A stretch of 38,701 nucleotides of DNA. Source: an uncultured Clostridia bacterium (GTDB lineage Bacteria > Bacillota > Dehalobacteriia > UBA4068 > JAAVYR01). Every line of letters begins with the position of its first letter. The stretch's first letter is position 1. A program made the position numbers and the translations under genes. The notes under the pieces are model-generated. The model saw only the letters and a program-made list of their open reading frames with translations, had not been told where the DNA came from and did not search any database. The stretch covers positions 1 through 38,701 of the forward strand of contig CAMNVD010000002.1 of assembly GCA_946562005.1 (NCBI GenBank), given 5' to 3'. Below, piece by piece: positions 21,501 through 26,670 of this stretch.

Positions 21501-21860
21501 TCAATCTATCCGGTTCGGTTCGCCAAACCGTTGAAAGTGTACTACTTCTCTTTCCCGTAAATAGCGAATGACTTTGTTCACATCTGGATCATCAGAAACC
21601 CGCAAAATATTTTCATAGGTGACACGGGCTTTCTGTTCTGCAGCTAAATCCTCTACTAAATCAGCAATAGGGTCGCCTTTTACAGCGATGGCCATGGCAT
21701 CAAATGCTTGACCTGCAGCGGCGGCAGGATATACGCCTTTGCCGTGGTCGATATAATAGGGCGCAAGTGGGGTCCCTTCTATATCAGAATCTTTCAAGTT
21801 TTTGGTTAATTGGTGAACAATAGTACCGACCATCTCCAGGTGGGCCAGTTCTTCTGTACC
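21501..21860 (-). CDS. cotJC: cotJC 3' segment (manganese-catalase-like spore coat protein, C-terminal ~119 codons; split gene)
   Basis: The frame reads GTEELAHLEMVGTIVHQLTKN...KGDPIADLVEDLAAEQKARVTYENILRVSDDPDVNKVIRYLREREVVHFQRF. This aligns with the B. subtilis CotJC blocks I recall (IGTEEFAHLEMI...KGDPIADL...EEKAR...FLREREIVH). No start codon or N-terminus is present upstream. Confidence 0.85.
   Translation of the reverse strand, partial: GTEELAHLEMVGTIVHQLTKNLKDSDIEGTPLAPYYIDHGKGVYPAAAAGQAFDAMAIAVKGDPIADLVEDLAAEQKARVTYENILRVSDDPDVNKVIRYLREREVVHFQRFGEPNRID
21852..21860. repeat. Left copy of the 9-bp core TTCTGTACC (candidate att core)
   Basis: Identical to 26479-26487. On the coding strand it reads GGT ACA GAA (G-T-E) in the cotJC frame at both copies. 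Confidence 0.7.
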
Positions 21861-22054
21861 TATAGAAATGGCAAAATGGGCAACGACCGCTTTCTGCCGG
21901 CAGTTGGAAAATTTGTCTTGTTTTTAGGGTCAATCCCTCGCACCTTGGGGACAAACTTTTCATATAATACATTGATGAAGAAAACTAGCGCTATTTCTCT
22001 TTCATCTCTATTTATCTTCCCGTTCCGGATAATAATTTGATTGGAGGGAAAGGA

Positions 22055-23197
22055 TTGAAAGAATATCCAAATCAACAAGGTAGAATGAACTATTATACTG
22101 GGGATCCTCGTGCTGATTTTTATGCTAATAGTGCACGGAAAATCTATCCTAATGAGTCTGCTGTGTCTGCAACTCCTTATACTGTAAGTAATGCAGCCTA
22201 TAACTGCAATTATGATTGGTGTGATTGTAACTGCAATACCAATACAGATTGTGATAATACCTGTGGTTGCCATTCTTGTGGCGGGATGACAGGCGCTACT
22301 GGACCTATCGGTCCCCAGGGTCCCATGGGGCCACAGGGTCCTCAGGGAAATCAGGGTCCCATTGGCCCTAGAGGTTGTCCTGGAGCAGAGGGGCCTGCTG
22401 GTCCTACTGGTCCCCAAGGACCGCAAGGCGACCCTGGTCCTAAGGGAGACATGGGCTGTCCTGGTATCCAGGGCTTAAGAGGGAATACTGGCCCTCAAGG
22501 GGTGGCTGGTCCTGCCGGACCTGTCGGTCCTATCGGGCCGCAAGGCCCGCAAGGCGACGCTGGTGCTACTGGGGCTACCGGTGCTACTGGCCCGCAAGGT
22601 GCTACTGGACCTATCGGTCCCCAAGGTCCTCAAGGGGCGCAAGGTGTTCCGGGCGCAACTGGTCCTATAGGTGCAACTGGAGCCACAGGTGCTACTGGGG
22701 CCACAGGTGCTACTGGGGCAACGGGCGCTACCGGGGCCACAGGTGCTACTGGCACCATTCCAACACCGGGCGCTGCCAACTTTACCTCTTTTGCGGCGCA
22801 AAATATTGAATCAGATGGTGTTTATGCGCCTATCACTTTGGCGGTGAACACCAATACTGGTATGGTATTAGAGCCTGATAATACGACCATTACCATTCAG
22901 CAGAGCGGCTTGTATGTTGTAATGTATTCGGTGTTGGCTAGCAGTGGTGCTAGCGCTGATGCTGCTATCGGGGTTATTCCTGTCGGCAGCGGTATGAAGA
23001 CTGCTATGTTGGGCTCTCGCACGCCTTTTCTTAGTAATGAAGCCGCAGTAAGCGGTAGTTTTGTGGCGCCTTTTCAAGCAGGTGAGCAAATTTTCTTAGG
23101 GGTGAAATCTCCTTATACAGTTGCCTTGGAGGCAAATGGAAACGGTGGGGCTAGTGTGACTCTGACGATTTTCCAGATTGGTCCGAGCATTGCATAA
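22055..23197 (+). CDS. Collagen triple-helix repeat protein with BclA/C1q-like C-terminal domain
   Basis: A Cys-rich N-terminus ([22 protein letters not shown]) precedes about 51 uninterrupted GXY triplets (nt 22283-22744). A ~150-aa beta-rich C-terminal domain follows. The start is ambiguous: TTG 22055 behind GGAGGG, ORF-track TTG 22037, or ATG 22085. Confidence 0.8.
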
Positions 23198-23226
23198 ATG
23201 TGGGCGAAGAAAAGGAAAGAAAGGTG

Positions 23227-24913: not shown

Positions 24914-26447
24914 GGCGGCGGCTTATTGTCGGGTATCTACTGAAAAAGACGAACAGCTTAATTCTCTAGCCAATCAACAGCAGTTTTTTCGCCATTACAT
25001 AGAAGGGCGCCCTGATTGGGAGTTAACAGATATCTATGTAGACGAGGGAGCTTCTGGTACTGCTGTGGGCCATCGTCCAGGTTTCTTAAAAATGCTGGCG
25101 GCGGGAAAAGCTGGTGAATTCCAGATTTTACTTACCAAAGAAATCAGCCGTTTTGCCCGTAATACATTAGATAGTATCTACTATACCCGCAAGCTAAAGG
25201 AATGGGGTGTCGGTGTTATTTTCCTCAATGATAATATTCATACTCTGGACCCTGATGCAGAGTTACGCTTAACCATTATGGCTTCTATTGCCCAGGAGGA
25301 AAGCCGCAAAACCTCTGAACGGGTAAAGTGGGGGCAGCGGCGACAGATGGAAAAGGGCGTTGTCTTTGGTCATGGTCTCCTTGGTTATCAGTTACAGCAG
25401 GGGCGGCTGGAGATAGAAGAAAGCGGTGCGGCCATCGTCCGGCAAATCTTTGAAAAATATGCCTGGGAGCAGAAGGGGGCATCTGTCATTGCCCGTGAAC
25501 TGACGGAAGCAGGGATTCCCACGCCAAGTGGAGGACAGGGATGGTCCCATAATGTGGTATTGAAAATCTTGAAAAATGAAAAATACATGGGAGATTTGGT
25601 GCAAAAAAAAACCTATACCCCTAGTTATCTCACGCATAAAAAGAAAATCAATCAAGGGGCGGAACCTTTGGTTATCTTGGAACAGCATCACCCGCCTATT
25701 ATCTCTCCAGAGCTCTTTGCTGCTGTTGCGGCAATTCTTGCGGAACGAGGGAAAGGGCAGAAAGAGGGGCGTCGTTATTCCCGAAGTTATTGTTTCTCGG
25801 GAAAGCTCTACTGCGGACAGTGTGGCAGTCGGTTGGTGGCGCGAACCAAGAAAAAAGGAGAGCACGTCTATCTATATTGGCAGTGCTATGCGAAAACAAA
25901 AAAAGGTAGCGCTATCTGTCCTAGTGCCACCCTGAGTCAGTCTTATTTGGAGCTAGTCATTTTACAGGCTATGAGAGAGGTTATGGCTTTGGTGGGACGG
26001 GAGCCTGTTTGGCAGCAAACTATGGTAGCGTTTTATGATGGTATCAAGCAGGTCTTGCAGCGGGAGGATGGCGGTGCCCGACAGAAGGAGCAGTGGCAGA
26101 GGCGTCTATCCCAGTTGGAGCTGGAACAGCAAAAGCTACTCCATCTGCACTTGCAGGCCCATATATCAGAAGAAGTATTTCTCCGGGAAAATACGATTTA
26201 TCGGAAAAAAGTCAAAGAGCTACAAGCAAAAATAGAGAGTAGTTGCCTAACGGAGAAGGACGATGATAAAGATAAAATGGCTGCAATCATCCATAAATGT
26301 CAGGAGATTTTAACCAGTGAGGTGTTTATAGATAGCTTTTATCGAGAAATATTAGAAAGAGTGGACATAGAAGATAAAGACCGAATGACCATATATTTTT
26401 CCGGTTTCCCTTGGGGTATCCGCTACAGGGGGCCGCTGGATAGCTAG
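24906..26447 (+). CDS. Large serine recombinase (513 aa)
   Basis: AAYCRVSTEKDEQLNSLANQ holds the catalytic Ser. Also present are LLTKEISRFARN, a recombinase domain, a zinc ribbon (CGQCGS...C...C) and a C-terminal coiled coil. TTG start. The stop lies 32 bp from the right core repeat. Confidence 0.9.
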   Translation: MIKAAAYCRVSTEKDEQLNSLANQQQFFRHYIEGRPDWELTDIYVDEGASGTAVGHRPGFLKMLAAGKAGEFQILLTKEISRFARNTLDSIYYTRKLKEWGVGVIFLNDNIHTLDPDAELRLTIMASIAQEESRKTSERVKWGQRRQMEKGVVFGHGLLGYQLQQGRLEIEESGAAIVRQIFEKYAWEQKGASVIARELTEAGIPTPSGGQGWSHNVVLKILKNEKYMGDLVQKKTYTPSYLTHKKKINQGAEPLVILEQHHPPIISPELFAAVAAILAERGKGQKEGRRYSRSYCFSGKLYCGQCGSRLVARTKKKGEHVYLYWQCYAKTKKGSAICPSATLSQSYLELVILQAMREVMALVGREPVWQQTMVAFYDGIKQVLQREDGGARQKEQWQRRLSQLELEQQKLLHLHLQAHISEEVFLRENTIYRKKVKELQAKIESSCLTEKDDDKDKMAAIIHKCQEILTSEVFIDSFYREILERVDIEDKDRMTIYFSGFPWGIRYRGPLDS

Positions 26448-26478
26448 GAAAATTTTATTTTTTTCTTCATTTTAGGCA

Positions 26479-26487
26479 TTCTGTACC
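26479..26487. repeat. Right copy of the 9-bp core TTCTGTACC
   Basis: Identical to 21852-21860. Confidence 0.7.
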
Positions 26488-26670
26488 GATATCGGTCAGT
26501 AACCCTTTGCAAACGTCATCGGTCATAGAATACCGTTGCGATAAGTAGCGAAGGGAAGCGGCAAGCTCCCCGTCCGGTCCGCCATATTGGCTAATGATGT
26601 AGCTAGCCAAAGCAGGATTTGGGTTTTTGATATTGATGGGAAACTGTAATTTCTTTTCATATTGCCACAT
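26479..26670 (-). CDS. cotJC: cotJC 5' segment (N-terminal 64 codons; split gene, runs into element DNA and stops at 26467)
   Basis: MWQYEKKLQFPINIKNPNPALASYIISQYGGPDGELAASLRYLSQRYSMTDDVCKGLLTDIGTE matches the CotJC N-terminus (MWVYEKKLQYP...QYGG.DGELAA.LRYL.QRY...LLTDIGTE). Three foreign codons (CLK) and a stop follow. Confidence 0.85.

Follow-up and report, generated by a model that had tools for sequence, protein, structure and literature searches.

Two unrelated recombinase elements divide the spore-coat gene cotJC into three segments in an uncultured Clostridia bacterium

Can a gene that is carried in pieces still be in use? The question is raised by cotJC, the third gene of the cotJABC spore-coat operon, in a 38,701-nucleotide stretch of DNA from an uncultured Clostridia bacterium (GenBank assembly GCA_946562005.1, contig CAMNVD010000002.1). 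We refer to this whole stretch as the window. A preliminary description, made from the sequence alone, had proposed that a 4.6-kb element encoding a large serine recombinase splits cotJC in frame, and that the gene is reconstituted during development. We find that cotJC is carried as three segments, with two unrelated recombinase elements between them. Probably, both elements are excised in the sporulating mother cell and the gene is rebuilt from its inherited segments. The parts of the operon, all on the minus strand, are as follows.

27169..27196, minus: promoter-like site upstream of cotJA, mother-cell sigma type (AC-N17-CATATACT; read from the sequence, consensus match)
26933..27121, minus: cotJA (Pfam CotJA, E 3.5e-13)
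26686..26949, minus: cotJB (Pfam CotJB, E 3.3e-28)
26479..26670, minus: cotJC segment 1, codons 1-64, ending ...LLTDIGTE (tblastn, repeat position and join)
21519..21851, minus: cotJC segment 2, codons 65-175, ELAHLE...HFQRFGE (the segment starts ELAHLEMVGT...)
12972..13022, minus: cotJC segment 3, codons 176-191 and stop, ALDRLQSKASTKTKRF* (six-frame search)

The N-terminal 64 codons had been placed at 26670-26479, and the open reading frame (ORF), the Pfam match and the repeat positions bear this out. In the present state, this ORF continues for three extra codons inside element 1 and then stops. Joining the DNA at the two copies of GGTACAGAA produces an ORF of 543 nt and 180 codons. The product has a continuous match to Pfam Mn_catalase (residues 1-174, E 6e-52), and solely after this in-silico join is there a full-length Mn_catalase domain in a cotJA-cotJB-cotJC arrangement. 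The site falls in a conserved DIGTEE..H stretch, which we take to be a metal-binding motif. The remaining ~116 codons were said to lie downstream on the same strand. Indeed they do, 4,627 bp away, except that the last five codons and stop (PNRID*, 21518-21501) are the end of a second element.

Note that the 180-codon product ends ...HFQRFGE-PNRID*, where the closest relatives read ...FGE-ALDRLQSKA... The segment 3 tail is contiguous with the rest of cotJC in L003, a Peptococcaceae genome bin, and in L083. Furthermore, the host flank 3' of cotJC in L003 matches window positions 12916-12705 at 87%. Hence, given this match and the tail at 13022-12972, an 8,496-bp element lies between the GAA of Glu175 and a second GAA. 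In-silico removal of both elements generates a 191-residue CotJC with the tail found in the contiguous L003 and L083 genes. The earlier proposal, that a single deletion restores cotJC, holds for the unbroken Mn_catalase domain; the native 191-residue form needs element 2 gone too. We considered whether 180 residues could be a natural length variant of CotJC, as homologues of this size exist. This is ruled out by the true tail, 8.5 kb away, and by the 180-residue database protein P0013, which is itself truncated by an element of the second type. All three segments are free of stops and frameshifts, and tblastn against the window found exactly three cotJC pieces and no further copy.

The two elements, their attachment (att) sites and the genes that could move them are listed below. 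Junctions were reconstructed in silico.

21861..26478: element 1, the DNA between two cores; 4,627 bp core to core, G+C content 49.5%
26479..26487, minus: attL1 core, GGTACAGAA
21852..21860, minus: attR1 core, GGTACAGAA
Reconstructed junctions of element 1: attB1 CTGACCGATATCGGTACAGAAGAACTGGCCCACCTGG; attP1 GCCATTTCTATAGGTACAGAATGCCTAAAATGAAG
24906..26447, plus: LSR1, large serine recombinase, 513 residues, catalytic motif YCRVST (Pfam Resolvase, Recombinase, Zn_ribbon_recom)
24725..24913, plus: 62-residue ORF, candidate recombination directionality factor, small-ORF family 1; overlaps the LSR1 start by 8 nt
24660..24689, plus: sigmaE/sigmaK-like promoter site 5' of the 62-residue ORF, GGACATAGAA-N12-CATAGAAT (consensus match)
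13026..21518: element 2; 8,496 bp core to core, G+C content 34.8% versus 45.1% in the rest of the window
21519..21521, minus: attL2 core, GAA, the Glu175 codon
13023..13025, minus: attR2 core, GAA
Reconstructed junctions of element 2: attB2 CAACGGTTTGGCGAAGCCCTCGACCGCCTGC; attP2 CCGAAGACTTGAACCGAACCGGATAG
13080..14633, minus: LSR2, large serine recombinase, 517 residues, motif YGRQS (Pfam Resolvase, Recombinase, Zn_ribbon_recom)
14678..14842, minus: 54-residue ORF upstream of LSR2, candidate directionality factor, small-ORF family 2, ending ...ELFHIFQKYE
14870..14900, minus: sigmaE-like promoter site before the 54-residue ORF, GTCATAAG-N15-CATAAAAT (consensus match)

An identical 9-mer at both junctions of element 1 had been reported, and we confirm it, with the second copy at 21860-21852, one base from the earlier figure. 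On the two strands together, the window has three copies of the 9-mer, and the calculated probability of a 9-nt identity at two fixed junctions by chance is ~4e-6. Crossover probably occurs at the GG dinucleotide at 26487-26486, in the Gly62 codon. The reconstructed attP1 is an imperfect palindrome with this GG at its centre. Similarly, attP2 contains a perfect 13-bp inverted repeat centred on GA (TTCAATCTATCCG-N16-CGGATAGATTGAA). A large serine recombinase near the right core of element 1 had also been described; three Pfam domains and an intact ORF establish this, and the catalytic YCRVST motif is intact. Its N-terminal domain matches PDB 3g13 (E 2.6e-36) and the protein matches SprA, from the Bacillus subtilis phage SPbeta (E 2e-15). 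The LSR1 stop is 31 nt from the attL1 core, placing the recombinase at the element edge, and the LSR2 stop is 54 nt from attR2. With an intact recombinase, this att-site anatomy and empty sites in relatives, cotJC is indeed interrupted in frame by a large serine recombinase element, of the kind found in sigK, spsM and gerE. While element 1 is in place, transcripts started at the cotJ promoter would pass through the truncated cotJC and continue, antisense, into the 3' end of LSR1; we saw no terminator hairpin in the sequence between the two (26447-26479).

Could the split be an artefact, created by a chimeric metagenomic contig? The window is apparently metagenomic, and the element 2 junctions were seen in one assembly alone. 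For element 1, the Logan assembly of SRR9924476 is 100% identical to the window over 21835-27272, junctions included, and the ENA assembly ERZ12290371 is 99.97% identical over 24578-27675. Hence, since two independent public assemblies carry the same junctions, the element 1 split is not an assembly artefact. In addition, dozens of genomes have the same break points and the same att-site symmetry. We attach almost no weight to this explanation.

Alternatively, cotJC could be a dead pseudogene here, its function lost or supplied by a paralogue elsewhere. We compared the window with L003, which has a homologous element at the first site, with the same order of recombinase, small ORF and two collagen-like genes. 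The DNA of the two elements is 76-77% identical. Over 175 cotJC codons, 66 differ between the window and L003, all of them synonymously, and 175 of 175 residues are identical. This corresponds to a synonymous divergence (dS) of ~1.0-1.2, a nonsynonymous divergence (dN) of 0.004-0.02 and a dN/dS of ~0.01. For the same pair, dN is 0.043 for cotJA and 0.119 for cotJB, so both are less constrained than cotJC. Fragments of cotJC in relatives are likewise free of stops, in 49 of 49 cases for the 5' part (Met1 to the junction) and 22 of 22 for the 3' part. No intact allele of this species' CotJC was found in a collection of 15 billion proteins, where the best intact match is 90% identical. We conclude that, by these sequence comparisons, the split gene is under strong purifying selection. 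Because cotJC has been kept clean while split, it should still be used, and hence rejoining would be required. The pseudogene explanation draws on C. difficile, which has several CotJC-like catalases with redundant roles, and on the fact that the window is 38.7 kb of a genome, so a second cotJC copy could lie outside it. In B. subtilis, cotJC is dispensable for sporulation and its loss might be tolerated. Set against the identity with L003, the three clean segments, intact cotJA and cotJB, and the intact fragments elsewhere, we think a dead gene very improbable.

The same break recurs widely. One genome per species was scanned with LSR1, giving 80 loci with recombinases 39-64% identical to it. 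The hosts include Oscillospiraceae, Lachnospiraceae, Peptococcaceae, Monoglobus, Caldicoprobacter, Pseudoflavonifractor and others. The arrangement of cotJC at these loci is as follows.

5' cotJC fragment convergent on the recombinase stop (the layout of the window): 49 loci
3' cotJC fragment directly 3' of the recombinase, same strand: 7 loci
3' cotJC fragment divergent from the recombinase start: 5 loci
cotJC fragment elsewhere in the locus: 4 loci
Undecidable, contig end too close: 7 loci
cotJC not found: 8 loci

Fragments of cotJC are therefore present at 65 of 73 informative genome loci. The eight loci with flanking DNA and no cotJC fragment are L035, L045, L050, L058, L076, L077, L079 and L080, and their recombinases may target other genes. 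All 19 loci in which both junctions are available are broken at one and the same GG, in the Gly62 codon (D-I-G|T-E-E), and GG is the sole sequence common to all these junctions. The core that the two junctions share is 2-13 bp long, and GG is always part of it. Note that these junctions were anchored on the motif; calls from longest common substrings gave spurious cores in about half of the loci and were rejected. Every attP reconstructed for this site is an inverted repeat centred on GG, with arms that vary by recombinase lineage (CATTTTG...GG...CAAAATG in the window's group). Since the symmetry persists through changes on both arms, the junctions look like real serine integrase attP sites. 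At this site, complete elements are as small as 3.8 kb, and some exceed 10 kb. They share the recombinase and the small ORF, and nothing else.

The second site also recurs. Relatives of LSR2 (34-52% identity) adjoin cotJC genes that stop at ...FGE| in L119, L149 and L117. They are also found in L022, L048, L055, L067 and L074, each of which has a site-1 element too. Hence, with both element types at five loci, the double interruption is itself recurrent. Among ~78 metagenomic cotJC genes, retrieved by CotJC similarity, 12 (~15%) have aberrant tails right after FGE. The database protein P0013 is a truncation at this site, followed by an LSR2-type gene and a 63-residue ORF (L182, 3992-6408). Two further 180-residue database "CotJC" proteins are P0031 and P0094; annotation-artefact status is confirmed for P0013. 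Conversely, L003 is uninterrupted at the second site, and intact homologues are 190-198 residues long and up to 90% identical. The empty site anticipated in relatives was thus found, at 90% identity in a cotJB-cotJC context and, for another, at 82% in a spoIIIA-cotJABC context.

We surveyed small ORFs upstream of related recombinase genes, at genome and IMG/VR loci, and found 68. Of these, 61 belong to one family, with the motif F..hQKAhLhsLhE..kL...Q, and several overlap the recombinase start codon. The small ORFs associated with LSR2-type genes form a distinct family with the C-terminal motif ...EeLyxIFxKY, which is present upstream of seven LSR2 relatives plus L182. By position and size, which resemble those of SprB, GirX and CD1234 in known systems, both small ORFs are candidate directionality factors. 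CATAnnnT is the -10 element of sigmaE and sigmaK promoters. Of 58 upstream regions, 34 have this box no more than 75 nt from the start of the small ORF, compared with 5.6±2.3 in shuffled sequences (maximum 14). The box is also present in 8 of the 9 LSR2-type loci looked at. The GGACATAGAA and CATAGAAT boxes are both kept in L003, with a variable spacer between them. A further shared sequence, GAATA..(G)TACAAG, lies ~9-10 nt ahead of the CATA box in L020, L022, L024, L027, L028, L034 and L010. Possibly, this sequence is bound by a regulator, for instance SpoIIID.

Together, these features suggest how cotJC would be rebuilt, by analogy with skin, SPbeta/spsM, gin and the skin element of C. difficile (skinCd). 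Expression of cotJ in the mother cell is known from B. subtilis. The small ORF and recombinase of each element would be turned on in the mother cell, by a promoter of the sigmaE or sigmaK type. The small protein would then act as a recombination directionality factor and permit attL by attR recombination, releasing each element as a circle. This would restore the 191-codon cotJC, to be expressed from the cotJ promoter. The forespore chromosome would retain both elements and, for that reason, they would be inherited. We infer the developmental timing of excision from the sequence features above.

Several observations weigh against this mechanism, and some favour ordinary integrative elements instead: these would use conserved cotJC as a landing site and excise for transfer, or sporadically, with cotJC off while they are resident. 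We searched metagenome contigs for exact matches to one degenerate 41-mer, covering attB, attP, attL and attR of this strain, and found none of any kind and hence no excision junction. The strain is therefore absent from that metagenome collection. We also asked whether 4-6 kb "Bacteriophage sp." scaffolds, encoding related recombinases, might be excised circles. They have cotJC fragments inside and lack terminal repeats and so are integrated copies. Between the window and L003, dS for the element genes is saturated, at 1.7-3.6, and exceeds the cotJ dS of ~1. Hence, related elements could have been acquired separately in the two lineages. The small ORFs match no known directionality factor and no Pfam, NCBIfam or PDB entry, other than weak hits to Pfam SHOCT (E 0.05), and a single-sequence AlphaFold model of the small-ORF structure is poor (predicted local distance difference test 58.9). 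The promoter calls are consensus matches with spacers of 13 and 15 nt; the B. subtilis sigmaE consensus spacer is 14 nt. Serine integrases often target conserved coding sequence, and many distant ones can share a site. Some IMG/VR relatives of LSR1 belong to real prophages that encode portal, terminase and tape-measure proteins and RecE/RecT. Hence, the recombinase family spans phages to minimal elements, as for SPbeta and skin. Finally, the cargo is diverse, and most of it has no relation to sporulation (ferredoxins, LysR regulators, alcohol dehydrogenases, AhpC, YaaA and, here, a defence reverse transcriptase). Ordinary integration does not readily explain a split gene with dN/dS ~0.01 at dS ~1 beside a homologous element of the same gene order, the intact state of all family fragments examined, or the lack of an intact allele on record. 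Nor does it account for CATAnnnT, which points to a mother-cell sigma factor rather than sigmaA, being enriched ~six-fold before the small ORF and recombinase, and present in both unrelated families. We consider ordinary integration unlikely, though worth keeping in mind, and prefer excision of both elements and rebuilding of cotJC in the mother cell.

What else do the elements carry? Their remaining features are listed below.

24619..24659, plus: terminator-like hairpin followed by a T-run, after collagen-like gene 2 (read from the sequence)
23200..24576, plus: collagen-like protein 2, 458 residues, BclA_C-like C-terminal domain (Pfam Collagen, E 6.8e-36)
22055..23197, plus: collagen-like protein 1, 380 residues, BclA_C-like C-terminal domain (Pfam Collagen, E 1.1e-24)
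21940..21969, plus: sigmaK-type promoter before the collagen-like genes, perfect match, AC-N17-CATATAATA (consensus match)
19794..20522, minus: two helix-turn-helix (Xre-type) regulator genes (Pfam HTH_19, HTH_3)
15261..18503, minus: UG24-class defence-associated reverse transcriptase, 1,080 residues, cargo (PADLOC RT_UG24; Pfam RVT_1, HD-CE)

Collagen-like protein 1 starts at a TTG after a GGAGGG ribosome-binding site, a position as called on L001. The BclA_C scores of proteins 1 and 2 are 28.6 and 33.3 bits, both below the 38-bit cut-off, and for the four collagen-type proteins that the window and L003 carry as cargo, the best BclA_C E-value is 5e-14. Over the promoter-like region of the first collagen-like gene and the ~110-nt leader that follows, the window (21925-22055) and L003 (1300-1430) are ~97% identical, compared with ~77% for the coding DNA, where dS is saturated. 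We found no structured RNA in this leader, with no Rfam match and a folding z-score of 0.34. Cysteine-rich stretches lie just ahead of the collagen repeats in both proteins (window 22055-22300 and 23200-23290); such stretches may serve to cross-link the two proteins within a surface layer of the spore. The loop of the 24619..24659 hairpin exceeds the length limit of the scan tool; the hairpin was read by eye.

In element 2, the reverse transcriptase matches the PADLOC RT_UG24 profile at 1077 bits and full length (residues 13-1077 against profile positions 3-1035 of 1036). A neighbouring cargo gene encodes 183 residues with a weak match to an RT-associated profile, and the pair spans 15261-19058 on the minus strand. 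An anti-phage system is thereby housed within a sporulation gene. Element 2 also encodes a 169-residue coiled-coil protein (19285-19794, minus strand) with near-perfect tandem repeats (DVTSLKTDMSEVKEDIVGLKN...), and several ORFs that have no assigned function. Its Pfam and PADLOC matches are to defence and regulator genes. The PHROGs scan covered element 1 and 18 related complete elements, and found no phage genes for structure, lysis or replication; integrase/invertase and collagen-repeat/tail-fibre matches were the only ones. We found no close named phage with either recombinase, the best full-length matches being ~34% and 30-32% identical. The earlier "skin/SPbeta-like" label, in its prophage-like sense, therefore does not suit element 1, which is nearer to the non-phage element gin. 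Among the related elements that split cotJC (L005-L074), AhpC/TSA peroxiredoxin and YaaA, both peroxide-stress genes, are encoded by two elements each; the host gene is catalase-like.

How does this arrangement compare with known systems? The closest is gin, in gerE of B. cereus ATCC 10987 (Abe et al. 2017, PMC5595907). Like element 1, gin is not a phage, splits a small mother-cell sporulation gene in frame, and has a 9-bp shared core with imperfect inverted repeats in its att sites. Its excision needs the serine recombinase GirC and a second factor, GirX, both expressed during sporulation (PMC5595907). Conversely, gin is 28.6 kb with three recombinase genes, where element 1 is 4.6 kb with one, and the target gene is different. 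Excision of gin was demonstrated in vivo and in vitro; here, excision is a deduction. The best regulatory model is skinCd, where the recombinase CD1231 works with CD1234, a 72-residue sigmaE-dependent directionality factor that restricts excision to the mother cell (Serrano et al. 2016, PMC5025042). The skinCd recombinase is constitutive (PMC5025042), whereas here the small ORF and recombinase appear to be co-transcribed. Like element 1, skin elements (SpoIVCA in B. subtilis, CD1231 in C. difficile) have a large serine recombinase at the element edge and split a mother-cell gene. They differ in being prophage-like (19 genes in C. difficile; 48 kb in B. subtilis) and in gating a sigma factor rather than a coat gene. 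Hence element 1 resembles gin rather than skin or SPbeta.

SPbeta, in spsM, rebuilds a spore-surface gene in the mother cell using the serine integrase SprA and the small directionality factor SprB, from a sigmaE/sigmaK-type promoter (Abe et al. 2014, 2017). It differs from element 1 in being an active phage. LSR1 and SprA are detectably related. Between SprB and the small ORFs here, we detected no sequence similarity. Heterocyst elements (nif, fdxN and hupL, with XisA, XisF and XisC; Calothrix NIES-4101, PMC11249958) likewise repair genes, by recombinases, in a terminally differentiated cell, and several interruptions of one gene or operon are known (PMC11249958). Both LSR1 and LSR2 match the XisF model below its cut-off, a family-level likeness; the phylum and developmental programme differ. 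As an interruption target, cotJC is already on record, and our system belongs to the known sporulation gene-intervening elements, a class that comprises skin, SPbeta, vfbin, vrin, gin and yin. A preprint (Galperin et al. 2022) noted an interrupted cotJC in Laceyella sacchari, one of the Bacilli. Kohm et al. 2021 cite a survey, by Abe et al. 2013, that lists cotJC as a target. In the parts of these records available to us, which for Abe et al. 2013 means the citation alone, the insertions are called skin-like or phage- or transposon-related, in passing bioinformatic notes that have no att-site analysis, second site, family survey or experiments. In the literature searched, we found no report of a double interruption of cotJC, the second site, att sites resolved to the nucleotide across Clostridia, or the two small-ORF families.

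Rearrangement of sporulation genes has been studied mostly in Bacilli and in sigK of C. difficile. Our data indicate that elements which split cotJC are common among gut Clostridia, both uncultured and cultured, and that one gene is able to hold two independent elements. These elements are tiny, down to 3.8-4.6 kb, with att sites defined to the nucleotide, and since cultured carriers exist the system is directly testable. Among these carriers are Caldicoprobacter algeriensis TH7C1 (L015), Pseudoflavonifractor phocaeensis An507 (L042), Clostridiaceae bacterium 1XD21-29 (L005) and Ca. Avoscillospira LCP25S3_F1 (L070). The small protein families that accompany each recombinase lineage are candidate directionality factors; such factors are scarce, and are wanted for genome engineering with serine integrases. 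Split cotJC genes are also prone to being miscalled as pseudogenes, and a database CotJC of ~180 residues (confirmed for P0013) is a truncation artefact of the element 2 type. A broader view, which we offer tentatively and hold to be possible rather than probable, is that, throughout gut Clostridia, cotJC acts as a landing pad with two sites. Two unrelated recombinase lineages, each with its own directionality factor and mother-cell excision module, would occupy different codons as germline-only elements whose cargo profits from that state. If so, rearrangement would have two locks, and both elements must fire to rebuild cotJC in genomes like this one. The sigmaK-driven collagen-like spore-surface genes would be cargo that gains from a germline-only existence, and the anti-phage reverse transcriptase would be lost solely in the dying mother cell.

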